Under the pieces are notes generated by a model. The model worked only from the letters and a program-made list of their open reading frames with translations, ran no database searches and was not told the DNA's origin. A stretch of 64,000 nucleotides of DNA from Escherichia phage FL38. The stretch lies in the sequence record PP400784; one strand, given 5' to 3'. The position numbers were made by a program, and so were the translations under genes. This document shows, in pieces, positions 569-48,358 of this stretch (positions within the stretch are counted from its first letter, which is position 1; the number at the start of each line of letters is the position of its first letter).

Positions 569-599
569 AAGGCGGGGATAATCCCCGCCTTTTTATTTT
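569..599. terminator. Bidirectional rho-independent terminator between convergent genes
   Basis: GC hairpin GGCGGGG-ataat-CCCCGCC followed by T-run on plus strand; sits between gp54 stop and minus-strand lipoprotein stop. Confidence 0.7.
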
Positions 600-1078
600 G
601 CTAAATCATTGCAATATTTTAGTGCCTTAGTTTGAAATTCTGCGCTGTTAAGTTCTTCATAACGGTCATAATCACCGTTTAATGCTGCCTTTCTTGCTTC
701 TTGCTCTATCTGCATGTCAGACATGATAATACAGCGATCCCGCGCTTTCATCTTCTCAAGTTGTATAGACTCTTCTTTCTGCTTGCGCAATTCTTCTTGA
801 CGCTTCTTTTCTTCTTGTGCTTTCTCTTCCCGCGCTTCTTTGATTGCATCCTTGAACATCTGCGTTTGTGGTGCTAAGCCAACTTTAACGCGATCCACGT
901 CTCGACGTTCCATTTTAGAAATAAAGCATGATTCAATCTGATCATCACTTGCATATGCTGCTTTACATTCACGAAGCAAGAAAACCGGATCTGATTTAGC
1001 ATTCATCATAGCTTCCATGTTGGCACAACCAGTAAGCATGAATGCAGCCGCAAGACCAATCAGTTTAATCATTTTCAT
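593..1078 (-). CDS. Predicted lipoprotein with charged coiled-coil region
   Basis: N-terminal signal peptide with lipobox LTGC (MKMIKLIGLAAAFMLTGC); K/E-rich helical segment. Confidence 0.6.
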   Translation of the reverse strand: MKMIKLIGLAAAFMLTGCANMEAMMNAKSDPVFLLRECKAAYASDDQIESCFISKMERRDVDRVKVGLAPQTQMFKDAIKEAREEKAQEEKKRQEELRKQKEESIQLEKMKARDRCIIMSDMQIEQEARKAALNGDYDRYEELNSAEFQTKALKYCNDLAK

Positions 1079-6726: not shown

Positions 6727-6756
6727 ATTGTAGGGGATCTCCCGATCCCCTGTCAA
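6727..6756 (-). promoter_or_regulatory. Early promoter cassette
   Basis: TTGACA-18 bp (GGGGATCGGGAGATCCCC)-TACAAT on minus strand. Confidence 0.65.
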
Positions 6757-6971: not shown

Positions 6972-7000
6972 ATTATAGGGGATCTCCCGATCCCCGTCAA
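6972..7000 (-). promoter_or_regulatory. Early promoter cassette
   Basis: TTGACG-17 bp-TATAAT with GGGGATC...GATCCCC arms in spacer. Confidence 0.7.
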
Positions 7001-7013
7001 CAACTTTTTAAAA

Positions 7014-7487
7014 TTAGTTGCACCAAATTCGAATGATTTCGTCTCGTTCAAATTTTTGCCAGATTACTCGGTCGCCCGCTGCCATAATACTGACAAATCC
7101 AGTTATATTTCCGGTGTACTTGCTTTTAGTTTCTGCATCATATTCAAAGAATGGAGCTTTAAGATCGCTAAACTCATCTTTTCCCACAAACTTCATAACA
7201 TGACGGTGTGCGTAATATTCGCTTCTTAGTGTTGTTGTGATAGTTCCGTCATCATTTGATTTCAGATGCAATTCGGCATCTTCATAAAGACTTGCATCTC
7301 GTTGTTTACTTTCGATACCATCATTATATGTTGATTTGGTTGCACTCCAACATTGATATGTCTTATCTACATTTTCGATCTTTTCCTGTGTCATGTCAAA
7401 AAGCGGCGCAACCTTTTTCTTAGCCGCGTGCGCAACGTTGGTCATAGACAGTGCCGCAACAACCACAATCGCAATAATTTTCTTCAT
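7014..7487 (-). CDS. Predicted secreted/periplasmic protein (157 aa)
   Basis: N-terminal signal peptide MKKIIAIVVVAALSMTNVAHA with AHA-A cleavage site. Confidence 0.6.
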   Translation of the reverse strand: MKKIIAIVVVAALSMTNVAHAAKKKVAPLFDMTQEKIENVDKTYQCWSATKSTYNDGIESKQRDASLYEDAELHLKSNDDGTITTTLRSEYYAHRHVMKFVGKDEFSDLKAPFFEYDAETKSKYTGNITGFVSIMAAGDRVIWQKFERDEIIRIWCN

Positions 7488-7548
7488 AATATCATCTCCT
7501 TTGGTTTATATGGCGGGAGTATCTTAGCAATACTCCCTTAATACTATA

Positions 7549-8990: not shown

Positions 8991-9019
8991 ATTATGCTAT
9001 ATCCCCGATCCGGTGTCAA
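8991..9019 (-). promoter_or_regulatory. Early promoter cassette
   Basis: TTGACA-17 bp-CATAAT on minus strand. Confidence 0.7.
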
Positions 9020-9025
9020 CACTTT

Positions 9026-9304
9026 TTATAAAATAATTTTTTGATATTTTTCTATGATGTTCGTGTAAGTCACCTCAACCGCTAGCACCGTTGCTTCGAA
9101 TCCACCGTTTAGCCAATGGCTATGATCATGATCGTGAAAGAAACCAAGACCAGTACGAAGACCTTCTTTATATTCGGCGCGTACATTTAGATCATCATCG
9201 ATAAACAGATAAAACCATGAATTTTTACTAGGATTGATGATACAACCTTTCAGATTAGGGAGAATATCACGACTAAGAATAAACTTATCACCTACTTTGA
9301 ACAT
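9026..9304 (-). CDS. H-x-H-W family small protein, member 2 (92 aa)
   Basis: FHDHDHSHW motif; start trimmed to ATG (MFKVGDKF) preceded by SD GTGAGGA. Confidence 0.55.
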   Translation of the reverse strand: MFKVGDKFILSRDILPNLKGCIINPSKNSWFYLFIDDDLNVRAEYKEGLRTGLGFFHDHDHSHWLNGGFEATVLAVEVTYTNIIEKYQKIIL

Positions 9305-9308
9305 AATA

Positions 9309-9629
9309 TTAGTCCTCACTTATAAGGTCAAACCAATTGTTTTTCGCATAATGCTTAATGCGTGCTTGATCTGCTTCCGCTGGTGATAGATTCCATGCAA
9401 CCACTACAACTTCTGACGCATCGTCATCCGTTTCTGATACCCAGTGATTGTGATTCATACAGTTATTTGCTATCGAGTGAGCAAATGATTTCATCACTGG
9501 AGACGTATAATCATAGTAACGGATTTTCAGATTTTCATCAACATACAAATAGATCGTATAAGGTTTATATTCAGTAACCAGTAACAGACAGTTACGCAAT
9601 TCTGGGAAAATCTTTTTAGTTAATTTCAT
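9309..9629 (-). CDS. H-x-H-W family small protein, member 3 (106 aa)
   Basis: MNHNHW motif and family pattern. Confidence 0.55.
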   Translation of the reverse strand: MKLTKKIFPELRNCLLLVTEYKPYTIYLYVDENLKIRYYDYTSPVMKSFAHSIANNCMNHNHWVSETDDDASEVVVVAWNLSPAEADQARIKHYAKNNWFDLISED

Positions 9630-9843
9630 ATTCTAGTTCTCCGTAATACACGGTAATCCATTTTTCTTCATATTTTGTATCTTTCCAGCACACAATACCG
9701 TTTACTGTGCAATCTTTGGAATTGACGAATGATTCATATTGTTCCGCATCTTCCATCATTTCATGAGCGGTCTTTTCATCGAATATATCGCAGATCGCTT
9801 TATATGCTCGATAATCTTTAAATTTGCTCATAATTAACACCAC
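9616..9843 (-). CDS. Hypothetical protein (75 aa), tandem paralog of 9834..10043
   Basis: Both begin MSKFKDY(R/K)AY and share W(K/E)(D/E)T.Y motif. Confidence 0.5.
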   Translation of the reverse strand: MVLIMSKFKDYRAYKAICDIFDEKTAHEMMEDAEQYESFVNSKDCTVNGIVCWKDTKYEEKWITVYYGELEYEIN

Positions 9844-10043
9844 TCAAGAGTTTTTGAAAACACATCTATCCATTGTTGAGTATATGCGGTTTCTTTCCAT
9901 GATACAATACCAGTCGAATAATGGTTTTTGTTTCCAGAAAAGGACGGGCATTTTGATGCATCTTCCATCATCTTTTCGGCGAACTCTGGTGCGTATACTC
10001 GCAAAATCTGTTGATATGCTTTATAATCTTTAAACTTACTCAT
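9834..10043 (-). CDS. Hypothetical protein (69 aa), tandem paralog of 9616..9843
   Basis: N-terminal MSKFKDYKAY shared with neighbour. Confidence 0.5.
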   Translation of the reverse strand: MSKFKDYKAYQQILRVYAPEFAEKMMEDASKCPSFSGNKNHYSTGIVSWKETAYTQQWIDVFSKTLEWC

Positions 10044-10324
10044 AACAACACCACCGATACATCGTAATCATTCGCGGCCTTATCGGCTTCTTCAACCGAC
10101 ATAATACCTTCTGCGACAATTGGCATAGGGTGATCGTGATTCCACCAATGGTCATGTATATCAATTTCAGTTTTGCCGGAAAATGAATCATGTTTGACGT
10201 TTTTCACTTTATACCCGATGTGACCGTCGTGGTCAATAAAGATATAGTTTCCGAAAATCGGTGTCTGTAAAATCATACCGAAAAATTTTTCTTTGTTGTT
10301 CGGGTCGAGTGTAATCATTTTCAT
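10040..10324 (-). CDS. H-x-H-W family small protein, member 4 (94 aa)
   Basis: IFIDHDG ... IHDHWWNHDH motif. Confidence 0.55.
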   Translation of the reverse strand: MKMITLDPNNKEKFFGMILQTPIFGNYIFIDHDGHIGYKVKNVKHDSFSGKTEIDIHDHWWNHDHPMPIVAEGIMSVEEADKAANDYDVSVVLL

Positions 10325-40376: not shown

Positions 40377-43166
40377 ATGGCAGATTTAAGCAGAATCCAA
40401 TTTAAACGCACTAGCACTAAAGGTCGTAAACCTGATGCTAGTACGATGAATCCGGGGGAATTGGCAATCAACCTTGCGGATCAATATCTTCTTACTAAAA
40501 ATGATTCCGGTGCTATTATCAATTTAAGTTGTCCTCCTGTTTATGACCGCGATGTTACAATGGCGGGTAAGGTTAAAGGTAATAATTATATCTTAAGTAA
40601 AACCGCTAACTATCTGGAAGATCAGACCGCACGAGATCTTAATTACTTTGGTGCTTTCCGAACTAATGGACAAGATGGTCTTTTAGATCTAACTCTTAAT
40701 GTTCCTCATTCTGCTGGCATTAATCATGGTCGAGGATTTACTTTCCGTTATGCGACTGGCGGATCTCGTGTTGAAACCTATGGGTATAATGCACAGGGAC
40801 AAAAAGCATTTAGCTATAAAATGTATCACGAAGGTGATAAACCAACTCCAGGAGAATTGAACGTCTATAGCAAACAAGAAATTGACCGGATGTTTGTTAA
40901 GAACGTTAAAATGGTTGTTCCTTCTGGTGGTACAAACCGTGGTTATTTTAAAATTGCATCCGCAATGATCCCGCAGAGTGGTCGGATGGCGTTTCTGCGA
41001 ATCTATGGTGGTAATGGATATAATGTAAACTCATATGACCAAGTTGATTTTCTTGAAATTGTTATTCGTAGTGGTAATAATAACCCTAAAGGCGTTAGTA
41101 TTGCTGCATATCGTCGAAATTCTTTGAACGTCCATGAAGTATTTGCAATTAATACTTCCGGTGATAGCTATGACATTTATGTTAACTATGGTCGTTACAC
41201 TGATAACGTTATTGTAGAGTTTGGAAAAACTGTTGACGTCGCATTGACTGTTCATGATGTTCCTGAATTTTCGGCGACTAAACCAGAAACCGGAACTAAA
41301 TTTGATGCTCGTGTTATTACGATGTTCAACACCGAAAACAAAGCCGGAACATTGATGTTTGATAATAACAATCAGTTAACCTATGATATTGTTAGCCTTA
41401 GCAATGGTCCTGATGATGTTAGAAATTATCTGCGTAAATTCCGAAGTAAAGCGGGTGAAATGATTTGGCATGAAACCGTTCAGGGTGCTGTATATCGTCT
41501 TGCTACTGGAACTACTGATTCTACGGAAGTTCTTAGAGTTGATTCTAACAGTGCTCTCCCGGGTAGCTATAAAGGATATGTAATTACTGGTAAAATGGAA
41601 TTGCACGGTAGCGGTAGTGCGATGAATTTACACCGCCAGACTGGTCAAGCTGCATATATGGCGTGGTGGGATCGTCGTGATGGTAAAAACCAACGTAGTG
41701 GTTATATCGGCCATGCGGATGGTACTACTGATGGTTTTGTGTGGCGTAATGATGTTGGTGCGAACTCATTTGATTTGGAAAGTAGTGGACAAGTAAATTT
41801 GACTACAGGAAAAACAAAAATTGTATATACCAACGGACAATATTATTCCGCTAACTCTGATGCATTCCGTATGATTTACGGCAATTATGGCGCATTCTGG
41901 CGTAATGACGGCACTAAAGTTTATCTTCTTTCTACTGCCGAAAATGATCGTTTTGGTGGATGGAACGGCAACCGACCATTCATTTACGATTTGACTTCCG
42001 GTAACGTTCAATTAGGCGGTGACGGTAACGAAGCTGCATTAACGTTAGAACGTGCAAGCAAAGCCGCTCGTTTTACGGGTGATGTTTATGTAGAAAAAGG
42101 TTTCCTTCATTTCTCTAGTGGACGATTAGGATCTCGTGATTTCTTTAAAATCAACCATTGGGGTGATAGCAATAACGGTCGTGATAACATTTTGCAGTTT
42201 GAAGACAATAGCGGTGCACACTTCACAACTGAACGTAAAATGGCAACCGGTGAAATTACTGCGCGATTTAAAGGATTTGTGCGTGTAGAATCTGGCGAAA
42301 TTACATTCCATGCTAACCGTGGTTCTTCTTCGCAATTTAGTCTCAATACATGGGGTAATGAATCACGAAAACAAGTTTTTGAATGTAAGGATGCAACAAG
42401 TTATCATTGGTATACCGAACGTACTGCGGGTGGAACTGGTCCGGTTAAGTTCTCTGTTGCAGGTTCTTTCTATAGCGGAAGCGATGCTAACGTAGGCGGT
42501 AGTCTGAATTTTGGTAATGCTATTCAACGCGGCGCTAGCGTCATTACTATAGATTCTGGTTCTGCGGGTGCTGGTTCTTTTGCATCTCAACATGATGATA
42601 ACGTCAAAGCACCTATTTTCCAACGTTTAGACCGTGGTGATGCGTCTACATATGTTCCTTTGATCAAGCAACGTTATGTTCAAGGTGCAGTAACATTCTC
42701 GTTGGGTATGCTTCTTAATGAAGGTTCATGGCGAGTTCATGTTAAAGGTTCTGGTGTTGAATCTAATACTACCTTCTATAAAAACGGCGATTTCCAAGCT
42801 GGACGCAATGGTAACTTTAACGACGTTTACATTCGCTCTGATGCTCGCCTTAAAATCAACAAGGAAGAGTATAAGGAGAATGCCACTGATAAAGTTAATC
42901 GCTTGACGGTATACACCTATGACAAGGTTAAATCTTTAACCGACCGTACTGTCATTGCTCATGAAGTTGGTATTATTGCTCAGGATCTTGAAAAAGAATT
43001 ACCGGAAGCAGTAACAACTTCTAACATCGGCGATCCCGATAAGCCAGAAGAGATCTTAACAATTTCTAACTCTGCTGTCAACGCTCTTTTAATTAAGGCG
43101 TTTCAGGAAATGAGCGAAGAATTGAATGCCGTTAAAGCTGAACTAGCGGAACTTAAAAAGAATTAA
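40377..43166 (+). CDS. 37: Long tail fibre distal subunit gp37 with C-terminal intramolecular chaperone-like domain
   Basis: N-terminus MADLSRIQFKRTSTKGRKPDAS, AGAGSFASQ, YVPLIKQRYVQGA parallel T4 gp37; C-terminus SDARLKINKEEY ... AHEVGIIAQDLEKELPEAV resembles S74-type autocleaving chaperone. Confidence 0.88.
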   Translation: MADLSRIQFKRTSTKGRKPDASTMNPGELAINLADQYLLTKNDSGAIINLSCPPVYDRDVTMAGKVKGNNYILSKTANYLEDQTARDLNYFGAFRTNGQDGLLDLTLNVPHSAGINHGRGFTFRYATGGSRVETYGYNAQGQKAFSYKMYHEGDKPTPGELNVYSKQEIDRMFVKNVKMVVPSGGTNRGYFKIASAMIPQSGRMAFLRIYGGNGYNVNSYDQVDFLEIVIRSGNNNPKGVSIAAYRRNSLNVHEVFAINTSGDSYDIYVNYGRYTDNVIVEFGKTVDVALTVHDVPEFSATKPETGTKFDARVITMFNTENKAGTLMFDNNNQLTYDIVSLSNGPDDVRNYLRKFRSKAGEMIWHETVQGAVYRLATGTTDSTEVLRVDSNSALPGSYKGYVITGKMELHGSGSAMNLHRQTGQAAYMAWWDRRDGKNQRSGYIGHADGTTDGFVWRNDVGANSFDLESSGQVNLTTGKTKIVYTNGQYYSANSDAFRMIYGNYGAFWRNDGTKVYLLSTAENDRFGGWNGNRPFIYDLTSGNVQLGGDGNEAALTLERASKAARFTGDVYVEKGFLHFSSGRLGSRDFFKINHWGDSNNGRDNILQFEDNSGAHFTTERKMATGEITARFKGFVRVESGEITFHANRGSSSQFSLNTWGNESRKQVFECKDATSYHWYTERTAGGTGPVKFSVAGSFYSGSDANVGGSLNFGNAIQRGASVITIDSGSAGAGSFASQHDDNVKAPIFQRLDRGDASTYVPLIKQRYVQGAVTFSLGMLLNEGSWRVHVKGSGVESNTTFYKNGDFQAGRNGNFNDVYIRSDARLKINKEEYKENATDKVNRLTVYTYDKVKSLTDRTVIAHEVGIIAQDLEKELPEAVTTSNIGDPDKPEEILTISNSAVNALLIKAFQEMSEELNAVKAELAELKKN

Positions 43167-44772: not shown

Positions 44773-45105
44773 TCAAATATTGCCGTAAATGTTTTCAGTC
44801 ATGGTTCTTGCTTCTTCCAGCATTTTGGTCATGCTCATGGTGTAGTTGTTATCTCGTACAGACTTAATAACGACAAGCAAGGAATCTAGGAAAACTTTAT
44901 ATACTCTCCATTTTACGCTATTGTTGAATAGTTTTATATCTTCTACTTTATCGATCAGATAACCTAAAACAGATAGCGCCTCGTTCACTTCTTCCGTTAC
45001 TTTACTGCCACTAAACCAGATGGGGTAAAGCTGGATTGACAGCGACCGTGCTGCCTCTTTCAGTTCGGTCGCCTTCCATGATTCATATTGATCAAAGTTA
45101 AACAT
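44773..45105 (-). CDS. Hypothetical protein (110 aa), tandem paralog
   Basis: Paralogous to 44416..44763. Confidence 0.5.
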   Translation of the reverse strand: MFNFDQYESWKATELKEAARSLSIQLYPIWFSGSKVTEEVNEALSVLGYLIDKVEDIKLFNNSVKWRVYKVFLDSLLVVIKSVRDNNYTMSMTKMLEEARTMTENIYGNI

Positions 45106-46052: not shown

Positions 46053-46340
46053 TTATTTTCGGTTGTGGTCACGATATGTTTTAAAATATCCCTCGTACCA
46101 CGGTAAAATATCTGGATTTTTACCACTATACAGACATTTAACCATCATGTCAATAAGGCCATCTGGTGTTTGATAGTTTCCAGCTTTTATAAGCTCTTTG
46201 ATTAAAATCTCTCTGTATATGTCTTTCGGATCTTCGTAATCAACTTGTATTGTGGTTGTGGTCTCATTCAATTTGGTTTCTGGAGTATCTCGCATTGCAT
46301 CCCACCAATCTTTTGTGACCTTCATGTTATTGAATTGCAT
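46053..46340 (-). CDS. Hypothetical protein (95 aa)
   Basis: ORF in early small-gene block. Confidence 0.45.
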   Translation of the reverse strand: MQFNNMKVTKDWWDAMRDTPETKLNETTTTIQVDYEDPKDIYREILIKELIKAGNYQTPDGLIDMMVKCLYSGKNPDILPWYEGYFKTYRDHNRK

Positions 46341-46351
46341 AATTTAACCTC

Positions 46352-47110
46352 TTACTTGCAAACGTATTGATCTACATCAATTGCGCCACCGAATGTAGGG
46401 TGACGTTTTTCAAATCGAATAGTTCCGTCGTTTGGTTCGAAAACGGAGTATTCATATAGATCTTTCTTGCCAACATTCTTATAAAACCCGCCTTTAGTCA
46501 TAACGGTTTCTTGTACGTTTGCTTTGTGTACGTTGTATTCGTCAATGTATACAAAATCAACCATCTTCCCATTTTTAATGGTTACTTTAAGATCTCCTGG
46601 CTGGTTTCCATATTTTGCATACAGTGGAGCTTCTTTAATTTTGGTGGAAATTCCATCTTTAATACTCCACTCATAACGAACGGTGCATTGATAGGTAAAA
46701 GTTTCGACCTTCGGTTCTTCCACCATTTTTTCTTCCTGTTTCGGTTGTTCTTCTTCAACCTTCGCAGAAGTCTCTGAATCGCTTTCTGACGCGGTTTCTT
46801 CTTTAGGTAATACATTCATCAAGTTTTGGATTTGAGCGTTGTATACAGCCTCCAGTGGCTGAATCTGCCCGATATTGATCATTGTATCACGAACAGTTTT
46901 ATTCCAGTTGAGTTGCTCTTGTTTAAGAGACGGATCAATCTTAACAGCCTTAACATATACTTCATGAAGTTTCGAATCCAGTGCGGAGATTGACTCATTA
47001 GCACAAATAAACTTCTCTGATTTGGTAGTGGCTTTAGCGCAATCAAAGGACGCAGCATTAGCACCGAAAGCAGTAGCGGAAAGAACGATAGCAGCGATAA
47101 TGTTTTTCAT
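46352..47110 (-). CDS. Secreted protein with LprI-like (DUF1311-type) N-terminal domain (252 aa)
   Basis: Signal peptide MKNIIAAIVLSATAFGANA; then C...E.IC...L..LD..L..Y pattern; acidic linker; C-terminal beta-rich domain. Confidence 0.5.
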   Translation of the reverse strand: MKNIIAAIVLSATAFGANAASFDCAKATTKSEKFICANESISALDSKLHEVYVKAVKIDPSLKQEQLNWNKTVRDTMINIGQIQPLEAVYNAQIQNLMNVLPKEETASESDSETSAKVEEEQPKQEEKMVEEPKVETFTYQCTVRYEWSIKDGISTKIKEAPLYAKYGNQPGDLKVTIKNGKMVDFVYIDEYNVHKANVQETVMTKGGFYKNVGKKDLYEYSVFEPNDGTIRFEKRHPTFGGAIDVDQYVCK

Positions 47111-47144
47111 AATATATTCCTCAATGTTTTGTCTTGATGGGAGT

Positions 47145-47173
47145 ATCTTACTACTCCCTTAATCCGGTGTCAA
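47145..47173 (-). promoter_or_regulatory. Early promoter cassette
   Basis: TTGACA-17 bp-TAAGAT. Confidence 0.6.
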
Positions 47174-47366: not shown

Positions 47367-47395
47367 ATTGTAGGGGATCGGCGATCCCCTGTCAA
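47367..47395 (-). promoter_or_regulatory. Early promoter cassette with palindromic spacer
   Basis: TTGACA-GGGGATCGCCGATCCCC-TACAAT. Confidence 0.65.
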
Positions 47396-47618: not shown

Positions 47619-47648
47619 GTGATTCTCCTTTCGTTTCGGTGTGGGAGT

Positions 47649-47677
47649 ATGTTAATACTCCCATTTCTTTACGTCAA
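47649..47677 (-). promoter_or_regulatory. Early promoter cassette
   Basis: TTGACG-17 bp-TAACAT within GGGAGTATTAACATACTCCC inverted repeat. Confidence 0.55.
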
Positions 47678-47684
47678 CCAGTTT

Positions 47685-47927
47685 TTAGAAATTTTTCGCT
47701 TCTTCTTCGGTCATCATCACCGCGCATTCGTGCATAACTTTGAAAACCGGATCAATCATATCGAATGCTTCGCGGGACAGTTTACGAGAAGCGATTTTGA
47801 TTGCTTCTACGTCTTCTACTACAGGAACAAAAACAGTTTTCAGTTCATCGAGAACGGCAGCTTCTTTTTCATTCAGGAAGATACCAGCGTCATACAGTGC
47901 AACTTCGATAACATTAACTTTAACCAT
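47685..47927 (-). CDS. Hypothetical protein (80 aa)
   Basis: ORF with SD GGAGGAAT after promoter cassette. Confidence 0.5.
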   Translation of the reverse strand: MVKVNVIEVALYDAGIFLNEKEAAVLDELKTVFVPVVEDVEAIKIASRKLSREAFDMIDPVFKVMHECAVMMTEEEAKNF

Positions 47928-47960
47928 TTTAATTCCTCCAGTTCGTTTAGGTATGGGAGT

Positions 47961-47989
47961 ATAATACTACCGATGACCTTTGGCGTCAA
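47961..47989 (-). promoter_or_regulatory. Early promoter cassette
   Basis: TTGACG-17 bp-TATTAT; overlaps the 3' end of upstream ORF 47967..48191. Confidence 0.55.
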
Positions 47990-48191
47990 CTGCTTTTTTA
48001 TTATTTTCGTGAAAATTTTTCGTCGCCTCATGTGCTTTTCGCTGGGCTTCTTGTTGTGCTTGCTGGCGTGCTGCCTCTTGTGAAGCCATAACGGAAGCAT
48101 TTGCAGCAGTTACAGCCGCTACCATCGCTGCGGTATTAGCATTTACAGTACATGCACTAGCCAGCAAAGCAATTGCAATCATTTTCTTCAT
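47967..48191 (-). CDS. Small secreted protein (74 aa)
   Basis: Signal peptide MKKMIAIALLASACTVNA; Q/A-rich helical region; C-terminus encoded across downstream promoter. Confidence 0.5.
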   Translation of the reverse strand: MKKMIAIALLASACTVNANTAAMVAAVTAANASVMASQEAARQQAQQEAQRKAHEATKNFHENNKKAVDAKGHR

Positions 48192-48358
48192 AGTTTCCCC
48201 TTTAGGTTATCTTCGACCTTCACCCATTCCGCGTATTCTTGCGCGGCTACTTTCGGATTTAGTCCGTCTTCGTACATTGCTTCAAGTAATGCTTCGTCGG
48301 TGGGCTTATACCCTAGATAAGCCTCCACCTGATTTTTCCAAATTTTATACCAGTTCAT
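48188..48358 (-). CDS. Hypothetical small protein (about 56 aa)
   Basis: Start trimmed to MNWYKIW, 4 nt after upstream stop. Confidence 0.4.
   Translation of the reverse strand: MNWYKIWKNQVEAYLGYKPTDEALLEAMYEDGLNPKVAAQEYAEWVKVEDNLKGKL

Follow-up and report, generated by a model that had tools for sequence, protein, structure and literature searches.

A predicted secreted LprI-domain protein of the Krischvirus FL38 carries a sharply bounded, hypervariable C-terminal beta-barrel

Introduction

What would a T4-type coliphage do with an early gene whose product appears to be exported and opens with a domain named after a lysozyme inhibitor? The question is raised by the gene at 46352..47110 of Escherichia phage FL38 (PP400784), which lies in a 64,000-nucleotide stretch of DNA that we refer to as the window. 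An original prediction, made from the letters alone, had described a secreted LprI-like protein of 252 aa and had proposed, by analogy with phage T4, that it acts in superinfection exclusion or in the timing of lysis. In the literature we found no experimental study of this phage protein. Here we show that its main feature, which the earlier description missed, is a hypervariable C-terminal cassette, and we weigh what this anatomy suggests about function.

Results

An early gene of an RB49-like phage with its own PeSL-type promoter. The open reading frame and its 252-aa product were described correctly and lie on the minus strand (Table 1). The framing around phage T4 does not hold, as the source genome is that of a Krischvirus, a T4-type coliphage related to RB49 and ~97% identical to it, and the 1.9 kb surrounding the gene are 97-98% identical to the corresponding DNA of phages W115, FL20, and RB49. 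The coding sequence is assigned to PHROG 14799 (E=2.5e-154), a family with no assigned function, and RB49p262 is annotated as "hypothetical protein". The gene sits in the leftward-transcribed early hyperplastic region that runs from holin t to topoisomerase gene 52, ~2.3 kb away from t, and its immediate neighbors are small hypothetical early genes.

Directly 5' of the gene we found a sigma-70-like early promoter together with a stem-loop, the arrangement that characterizes PeSL-associated genes of the hyperplastic region. Because the -10 is embedded in the stem-loop, we identify the element as a promoter-early stem-loop (PeSL), the kind of regulatory cassette known from RB49/phi1 (Arbiol et al. 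2010, PMC2839356). The published RB49 early-promoter prediction Pe:158760, with a score of 38.9, is the counterpart of the promoter at 47173..47145, and this strong promoter of its own supports the placement of the gene among the early genes. Promoter matches of this kind number 36 in the window against 5.4 expected, with 35 of the 36 on the minus strand. The presence of the gene in ~58 Krischvirus records, its Shine-Dalgarno sequence, the near-consensus promoter, and the published Pe:158760 together argue that it is a real gene.

Table 1. Features of the locus and its relatives in the window, with the allelic barrel types of the genus
Feature	Position	Strand	Description
Complete coding sequence	46352..47110	minus	252 aa; ortholog of RB49p262 / RB49ORF260c (UniProt Q7Y3G7)
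Shine-Dalgarno GAGGAA	47117..47122	minus	6 nt 5' of the ATG; read from the sequence
PeSL-type early promoter	47139..47173	minus	-35 TTGACA at 47168-47173; -10 TAAGAT at 47145-47150; 17-nt spacing; near-consensus sigma-70
Stem-loop GGGAGTA-N6-TACTCCC	47139-47158	minus	overlaps the -10
Sec (SPase I) signal peptide	47054..47110	minus	residues 1-19; cleavage between ANA and AS
LprI/DUF1311 helical domain	46802..47053	minus	residues 20-103 (model ~24-100); C24 and C36; near-invariant across homologs
Acidic low-complexity linker	46706..46801	minus	residues 104-135; 11 E, 4 S, and 4 K in 32 residues
Hypervariable C-terminal beta-barrel	46355..46705	minus	residues ~136-252; 8-9 strands; allelic type A in FL38
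Barrel type A			FL38, RB49; ~44 records
Barrel type B			UPWr_E1
Barrel type C			Phi1, GEC-3S, MIZ2/3/6, E26, ELT3, AV108, PHB13; 11 records in all
Barrel type D			JSE
Downstream 95-aa gene	46053..46340	minus	RB49p261 homolog; no signal peptide; PHROG 15915, no assigned function
Stand-alone secreted barrel paralog	7014..7487	minus	157 aa; homolog of RB49 ORF192

A cleavable signal peptide followed by an LprI/DUF1311 domain. The N-terminus of the protein, MKNIIAAIVLSATAFGANA followed by AS, combines an n-region Lys, a 13-residue hydrophobic core (Kyte-Doolittle 9-mer maximum of 2.9), and an A-x-A site, in agreement with the cleavable signal peptide of the original prediction. For ORF260c, the RB49 ortholog, SignalP 3.0 had likewise placed a signal peptide at residues 1-20 and predicted no TM segment (Nolan et al. 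2006). The D at position -1 of C24 indicates that the signal peptide has no lipobox. We infer a periplasmic location for the protein, as well as the disulfides within it.

The structure model of the 252-aa protein (mean pLDDT of 71.6) falls into four segments, starting with the signal peptide (pLDDT <50) and a helical domain whose fold agrees with solved DUF1311 structures. Residues 24-76 match positions 1-71 of the 106 in the Pfam profile PF07007 (LprI, formerly DUF1311) with 22.6 bits (E=1.4e-4), which for this sequence alone is a marginal pass of the gathering cut-off of 22.0 bits. All nine diverse phage homologs that we searched also match PF07007, the best at E=2.3e-6; these distant homologs come from Klebsiella Marfavirus, Aeromonas T4-likes, a jumbo phage, the lambdoid phage ev099, and the phage-plasmid SSU5. 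The distant phage homologs have in common the invariant motif AASFDC...E..IC...S.LD....Y....Q.W, of which C24, C36, Y52, Q66, and W69 are present and invariant, while the FL38 allele carries L67 in place of the family-conserved R67 of QRxW. A phmmer search with the full protein against PDB sequences found no match, the best PDB match to a profile of the N-domain reached only E=0.032, and searches of NCBIfam and PADLOC gave nothing meaningful.

The DUF1311/LprI-like block with its N-terminal cysteines thus stands as originally described, in a narrower form: it is limited to residues ~20-103 and is succeeded by a linker and a separate barrel. Neither this assignment nor the signal peptide is new. 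RB49ORF260c was already listed against DUF1311 at E=0.2 (Nolan et al. 2006), UniProt names Q7Y3G7 [quoted passage not shown], and PGAP calls the Escherichia coli homologs "lysozyme inhibitor LprI family protein".

A predicted disordered linker and an orphan beta-barrel. Beyond the LprI domain the model predicts a disordered linker (pLDDT 30-42) and then a confident all-beta domain (pLDDT 88-92 over residues 135-251), whose first strand carries C142 and whose last strand carries C251. When the barrel was searched exhaustively with phmmer against 1.84 billion cluster representatives, only its own family and three repeat-protein artifacts (P0021-23) came back, and by this sequence comparison it is an orphan. 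Its Foldseek matches in the PDB were all weak and calycin-like (NHBA, FABP, TbpB, and fHbp, at E of 0.008 or above). Invariant positions in the barrel are few, namely, the two Cys and a Gly, with the addition of a D in the family alignment.

We considered whether the barrel is an MliC domain (PF09864) and rejected this identification. There was no Pfam match at E<=10 for any of 10 barrel variants, hhalign gave a probability of 0.7% against E. coli MliC and of ~1% against an MliC/PliC alignment, and the family alignment shows no conservation of SxSGAxY or YxxxTKG, with type D alone having a loose resemblance in SAKHGAKF. Since all of the sequence-level checks for MliC failed and the functional motifs are absent, an "LprI-like architecture" describes a resemblance and not membership.

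Discrete barrel alleles exchanged at the linker junction. The anatomy of this protein, a conserved signal peptide, LprI domain, and linker joined to a sharply bounded hypervariable barrel, is new. Across the aligned homologs residues 1 to ~125 are near-invariant, and the C-terminal domain splits into discrete and very different types, of which there are at least four within the genus Krischvirus (Table 1). Pairwise identity among types A to C is 27-40%. Homology between type D and types A to C could not be demonstrated (hhalign probability of 3.8%), and since type D has nothing in common with the others beyond the framework Cys pair and a DG/NG motif, it may be a non-homologous replacement.

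Sliding identity against Phi1, JSE, and UPWr_E1 is 91-100% down to position 46709 and 13-57% from 46708 on, which is the linker/barrel junction, so that the 5' recombination boundary of the variable cassette falls at the 3' end of the linker-coding region. Across the step between 46709 and 46708 itself, identity drops from 91-97% to 13-20%. On the far side, identity recovers at the end of the gene in UPWr_E1 and only past the downstream 95-aa gene in Phi1 and JSE. Two alleles of this downstream gene exist, and they follow the barrel types; in Phi1 and JSE the gene begins right next to, or overlapping, the stop codon of the gene before it.

The LprI module is under purifying selection, with dN/dS of 0.03-0.11 over codons 1-103 and a dS of 0.10-0.26 that is at the genomic background level. 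Within types the barrel is also conserved: the type A barrels of FL38 and RB49 differ by 4 synonymous changes and 1 non-synonymous change, and the type C barrels of 11 phages are 99-100% identical. Every barrel allele is intact and keeps the framework cysteines. The variation of the barrel is cassette exchange between old, maintained alleles and not decay.

A free-standing barrel paralog elsewhere in the window. The original prediction had listed two further exported candidates, and both have the signals expected of them. The first, at 7014..7487, has a signal peptide with cleavage between ...NVAHA and AKKK, consistent with the published SignalP result of a signal peptide at 1-22 for RB49 ORF192c. 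It is a paralog of the barrel domain: BLASTP aligns the two at 2e-5, hhalign against types A to C gives a probability of 93.7% (E=1.9e-7), and its model is all-beta (pLDDT of 80.8 overall and ~90 in the barrel) with the same strand order and with a Cys pair likewise placed in the first and last strands. The paralog repeats the pattern of conservation as well, its signal peptide and N-terminus being conserved and its barrel part hypervariable, with 42-62% nucleotide identity to RB49 between flanks of 97-100%. It is flanked by PeSL-type elements, with a hairpin upstream of it that is of the type found upstream of 46352..47110, and ORF192, an ORFan that is absent from phi1, was shown experimentally to be excised as PeSL-mediated mini-circles (Arbiol et al. 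2010, PMC2839356). The second candidate, at 47967..48191, carries a lipoprotein-type signal (cleavage between LLASA and C) and is an accessory gene that is full length in only ~11 phage records.

Copies of the 5' module in E. coli prophages. The part of the gene that encodes the signal peptide, LprI domain, and linker (~370 nt) is present in 26 of 5426 complete E. coli genomes at 95-97% DNA identity, as a single copy in every carrier genome. The identity between phage and E. coli starts at the ATG and ends inside the linker. In strain E275 the copy is the outermost gene of a prophage (with terminase gpA and Rha) inserted in hicB. Two prophage lineages combine the same N-module with different barrels, one C-like (P0013) and one D-like (P0019). 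Behind one prophage copy lies a 25-codon 5' stub of the 95-aa gene found downstream in Krischvirus, and at the level of sequence this remnant suggests that a T4-like phage was the donor to the temperate pool. The neighbors of the prophage copies are prophage genes and hicAB, with no lysis genes adjacent, and no gene for a peptidoglycan-hydrolase effector is found next to either the phage or the prophage copy.

Spackle, lysis genes, and co-variation. No Spackle homolog is annotated in Krischvirus, and tblastn over ~133 of 164 kb, the part outside the structural module at 80-111 kb of RB49 (~31 kb), found none; with Marfavirus spackle and T4 Sp as queries, nothing scored below E 0.05 in the window or the RB49 loci. 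Imm is likewise neither annotated nor detectable in Krischvirus. Klebsiella Marfavirus has both a spackle gene and an LprI-domain protein, which implies that the LprI-domain protein is not simply a substitute for spackle.

The phages' own gp5 tail lysozyme is at least 98.8% identical across Krischvirus with all barrel types, and the lack of co-variation indicates that the variable module is not tuned to the self gp5. The tip of gp37 is also uncoupled from barrel type, as FL38 and RB49 are both type A and have unrelated gp37 C-termini. Holin T is 100% identical between type A and type C phages, and RB49 has an rI of its own; the role in lysis timing that had been proposed for the protein thus finds no support from co-variation. 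RB49 has a gp5 tail lysozyme; its endolysin is annotated separately as "putative endolysin" and not as a lysozyme, and it matched a D-Ala-D-Ala carboxypeptidase profile (Nolan et al. 2006), from which it follows that a muramidase inhibitor need not block the phage's own lysis.

Discussion

Candidate function and its alternatives. The swappable barrel suggests a role in defending the envelope of the infected cell, and a reading as a lysozyme inhibitor or superinfection-exclusion factor is plausible on our analysis. In the mechanism that we favor, an early-expressed, Sec-exported, soluble periplasmic protein would carry two modules on a flexible acidic tether, a conserved, disulfide-containing LprI/DUF1311 helical domain and a polymorphic 8-strand beta-barrel closed by a disulfide. 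It would serve as a periplasmic binder or inhibitor that shields the infected cell, or a prophage-bearing lysogen, from something external. The likeliest target would be a peptidoglycan-cleaving enzyme, for instance the lysozyme at the tail tip of a superinfecting phage or a toxin with muramidase activity, and the function would be Spackle-like, providing superinfection exclusion or "resistance to lysis from without". The conserved LprI module would then engage a conserved partner, and the swappable barrel would give specificity to a variable and probably foreign one. Any binding partner, like any exclusion or inhibition phenotype, is deduced here from these properties of the protein, and we put the mechanism forward tentatively, as a candidate that could well prove wrong.

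Several lines of evidence lead us to favor action against a peptidoglycan hydrolase. The protein has a signal peptide, a strong PeSL-type early promoter of its own, and a PF07007 domain. Signal-peptide-bearing LprI-domain proteins have repeatedly been reported as the cognate immunity proteins of peptidoglycan-hydrolyzing T6SS effectors (LysM/transglycosylase, pesticin, and Etse4), and SDE5 of Liberibacter, which consists of LprI only, inhibits hen lysozyme (HEWL) in vitro. Spackle and Imm are neither annotated nor detectable in Krischvirus, the order of LprI and then a small barrel mirrors that in Mycobacterium tuberculosis LprI (LprI plus MliC), and the outermost cargo of a prophage in hicB is a typical position for genes of lysogenic conversion or exclusion. 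Discrete barrel types that are conserved within type form the pattern expected of an arms-race specificity module. Other observations weaken the same reading. The LprI-domain protein ScwA gives no protection from lysozyme, the MliC domain of M. tuberculosis LprI was reported to be sufficient for inhibition and is credited with it, and the Pfam name LprI overstates the case for a lysozyme inhibitor. The phage barrel is not MliC, its type does not track gp5, spackle and an LprI-domain protein occur together in Marfavirus, and FL38 has L67 for R67. A broader proposal is more doubtful still: that LprI plus a swappable barrel, together with the free barrel paralog, make up an as yet unrecognized family of polymorphic periplasmic exclusion proteins that pit phage against phage or phage against toxin, in which the barrel cassette is the arms-race specificity determinant, alleles are exchanged intragenically among virulent Krischvirus and with temperate lambdoid E. 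coli prophages, and the whole functionally replaces the missing Imm/Sp.

Exclusion or defense might also be achieved by a barrel that binds something other than an enzyme, such as a variable envelope component or a protein of the incoming phage (an outer-membrane receptor at its periplasmic face, an ejection or tape-measure protein, or an LPS or lipoprotein intermediate), with LprI as a scaffold, dimerization, or localization unit. This would fit a hypervariability limited to the barrel while the N-module is invariant, the existence of a secreted stand-alone paralog without LprI that is itself hypervariable and mobile, the structurally similar small barrels of other phages, some of them annotated as lipoproteins (Erwinia phage Kwan), and the ligand- and protein-binding barrels among the structural neighbors (TbpB, fHbp, NHBA, and lipocalins). 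It leaves the strong conservation of LprI unexplained, however, and barrel type is uncoupled from the gp37 tip, so that we consider it somewhat improbable. Remodeling of the host's own peptidoglycan, in which the protein would bind or stabilize endogenous lytic transglycosylases or other peptidoglycan enzymes, and not foreign ones, to condition the sacculus during infection or in lysogens, has a precedent in Salmonella ScwA, which controls MltD levels, needs its disulfides, and lyses cells if overproduced. ScwA is built differently, though, with LprI at its C-terminus and no barrel; conserved host enzymes would not drive barrel polymorphism, and the gene is dispensable in many T4-like lineages, which makes such a role unlikely. 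A shield of the infected cell or lysogen against interbacterial weapons (T6SS muramidase or amidase effectors or pesticin-like bacteriocins), with barrel alleles matched to different toxins, draws on the LprI-domain proteins predicted or validated as T6SS immunity proteins and on a prophage cargo position suited to a trait that benefits lysogens. Against it, the phage and prophage loci have no adjacent effector gene and do not have the context of an orphan-immunity island, and a lytic infection of 20-30 minutes would gain little from T6SS immunity; we judge it slightly less probable again than host remodeling.

Two further readings carry the least weight. A factor in lysis timing that binds the periplasmic domain of holin T or antiholin RI, or inhibits the endolysin, would be expected to be a periplasmic early protein, as this one is predicted to be, and t lies only ~2.3 kb from the gene. 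Yet the identity of holin T between types A and C, an rI proper to RB49, an endolysin not annotated as a lysozyme, and prophage copies that do not sit beside lysis genes make this role very improbable. The lowest probability goes to a selfish ORFan cassette that has no function and is swept along in PeSL-mediated shuffling. The hyperplastic region is indeed rich in PeSLs, and mobility as a mini-circle cassette is documented for the paralog ORF192, but both the N-module and the barrel within each type are under strong purifying selection, the alleles are all intact with their framework cysteines kept, and the gene is retained in ~58 phage records and 26 E. coli genomes, which makes this reading scarcely credible.

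Implications. RB49-type phages are used in phage-therapy cocktails and appear to be without the T4 exclusion genes Imm and Sp, and the gene at 46352..47110 offers a concrete, expressible candidate for how Krischvirus handles superinfection or lysis from without. It is also a natural probe of what the widespread DUF1311/"LprI" domain does, given that the name rests on a protein whose activity is credited to another domain, and its discrete barrel alleles could serve directly as a panel for specificity. That virulent phages and prophages have a near-identical 5' module documents recent gene flow between lifestyles. Should there be no exclusion or inhibition phenotype, the gene would be an ordinary accessory gene of a hyperplastic region. 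New in this work are the architecture, which is modular and polymorphic, the mobile paralog that stands on its own, the flow of genes between virulent phages and temperate ones, and the negative results on co-variation.

Comparison with known systems. A close parallel in architecture is M. tuberculosis LprI (Rv1541c; PF07007 + PF09864), which is likewise exported and places an N-terminal LprI domain before a small beta-barrel, with cysteines. It is a lipoprotein, whereas the phage protein is predicted to be soluble from its SPase I site, and the phage barrel is polymorphic, is not MliC, and is separated from the LprI domain by an acidic linker of ~30 aa. The T6SS immunity proteins Etsi4 of EHEC, SED_RS06230 of Salmonella Dublin, and Psi15 of Pantoea, which are proposed or shown to neutralize peptidoglycan-targeting enzymes, have in common with the phage protein a Sec signal and PF07007. 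They are single-domain proteins of ~146 aa encoded beside their effector; the phage protein has the additional barrel, is phage-borne, and has no effector adjacent. Salmonella ScwA is also a soluble, disulfide-dependent periplasmic protein with an LprI domain, and it differs in being chromosomal and all-helical, with 275 aa, a C-terminal LprI domain, and no barrel, and in not being a lysozyme inhibitor. T4 Spackle (gp61.3), the periplasmic inhibitor of the gp5 tail lysozyme, is like the phage protein early, signal-peptide-bearing, and disulfide-containing, and it serves as a functional model only, the two having no sequence similarity. Spackle is a single helical domain of ~75 aa.

For the barrel by itself, counterparts of similar size are the MliC/PliC/PhiA/ACP proteins, which inhibit lysozymes and peptidoglycan hydrolases and are small 8-strand periplasmic barrels. 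The Y-Q-C in strand 1 and the C-terminal Cys of E. coli MliC (...EYQC...NNC) recur in the phage barrel, which is set apart from MliC/PliC by the absence of a Pfam match, an hhalign probability of ~1%, and the absence of SxSGAxY and YxxxTKG. As a mobile element, the locus resembles the PeSL-flanked ORFan cassettes of RB49/phi1 (PMC2839356), for which the paralog ORF192 is the model and whose type of promoter and stem-loop also stands upstream of 46352..47110. In those cassettes the unit of exchange is the whole gene between PeSLs; here it is an intragenic barrel segment, with or without the downstream gene, and its 5' breakpoint lies in the linker-coding region. Set beside these systems, the 252-aa protein is a member of the LprI family with a swappable, orphan barrel fused to it.

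A secreted barrel paralog and the elements around it

The 157-aa secreted product homologous to RB49 ORF192 is a distant paralog of the C-terminal β-barrel of the LprI-domain protein (46352..47110). Its barrel-encoding part shares 42-62% nucleotide identity with RB49, and the surrounding flanks share 97-100%. RB49 ORF192 was published as an "ORFan" and is excised as mini-circles of the promoter-early stem-loop (PeSL) type (PMC2839356); its fold and its kinship to the barrel of the LprI-domain protein are apparently new, without earlier mention. Two hairpin classes recur among the PeSL-type elements of the window: GGGAGTA..TACTCCC, whose -10 is TAAGAT, and GGGGATC..GATCCCC, whose -10 is TAyAAT. 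The pattern TTGACA-N15-19-TANNNT occurs 36 times in the window against 5.4 expected, with 35 of these matches on the minus strand.

Locations of the features discussed
Feature	Location	Strand	Remark
Secreted protein, 157 aa	7014..7487	-	RB49 ORF192
74-aa ORF, lipoprotein-type signal	47967..48191, inside 47698..48201	-	signal MKKMIAIALLASA|C
161-aa ORF with lipobox	593..1078	-	clear lipobox FMLTG|C; RB49 ORF182c
Neighbouring small ORFs, 115 and 110 aa	44416..44763 and 44773..45105	-
PeSL-type elements	47139..47173, 47367..47395, 47641..47664, 6727..6756, 6972..7001, 7511..7536 and others		hairpin with promoter -10
gp37 distal long-tail-fibre tip	~42258..42798; RB49 gp37 C-terminus, L001 224..915		compared by blastn
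Prophage loci with LprI-family gene	L018 (E. coli E275 chromosome) 9001..10296; L004 8790..8870
RB49 endolysin, RB49p102	L014 9719..10108 (outside window)

Variation and probable transfer of the LprI-family gene

Codon 67 of the gene (46910..46912) specifies Leu in the LprI domain, where all other homologs except that of phage FL20 have Arg, the residue found at the matching position of the Q-R-x-W motif in the wider DUF1311 family. FL20 has Leu67 in common with the window because the two proteins are 100% identical over the first 105 residues of the query. In E. coli E275, the prophage bearing an LprI-family gene is inserted into hicB at its 3' end, and the annotation gives hicB as truncated. 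One prophage variant retains a 25-codon stub of the gene that lies downstream in Krischvirus, a remnant that points to transfer out of a virulent phage into a temperate one.

Other exported proteins and neighboring loci

The 74-aa ORF, one of the original candidates for export, encodes an Ala/Gln-rich tail after its signal; the ~500-bp segment that holds it is missing from RB49, the full-length ORF occurs in only ~11 phage records, and it had no PHROG or PADLOC match. We note a third protein, absent from the original candidates, whose lipobox predicts export: the 161-aa product, with a Lys/Glu-rich, helical-looking body, is encoded next to Alt-like ADP-ribosyltransferase genes, and its RB49 counterpart was SignalP-positive in the 2006 supplement. 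The two neighbouring small ORFs form a tandem pair of paralogs, with 28% identity at E=2e-10.

The gp37 tip has no blastn-level similarity to that of RB49 and lies between flanks of 70% and 96% identity, which indicates replacement of the receptor-binding tip. The RB49 endolysin probably acts as a peptidase rather than as a T4-e-type lysozyme, since it is annotated only as a "putative endolysin" and its profile match in 2006 was to D-alanyl-D-alanine carboxypeptidase; this likely peptidase nature is relevant to any lysozyme-inhibitor hypothesis.
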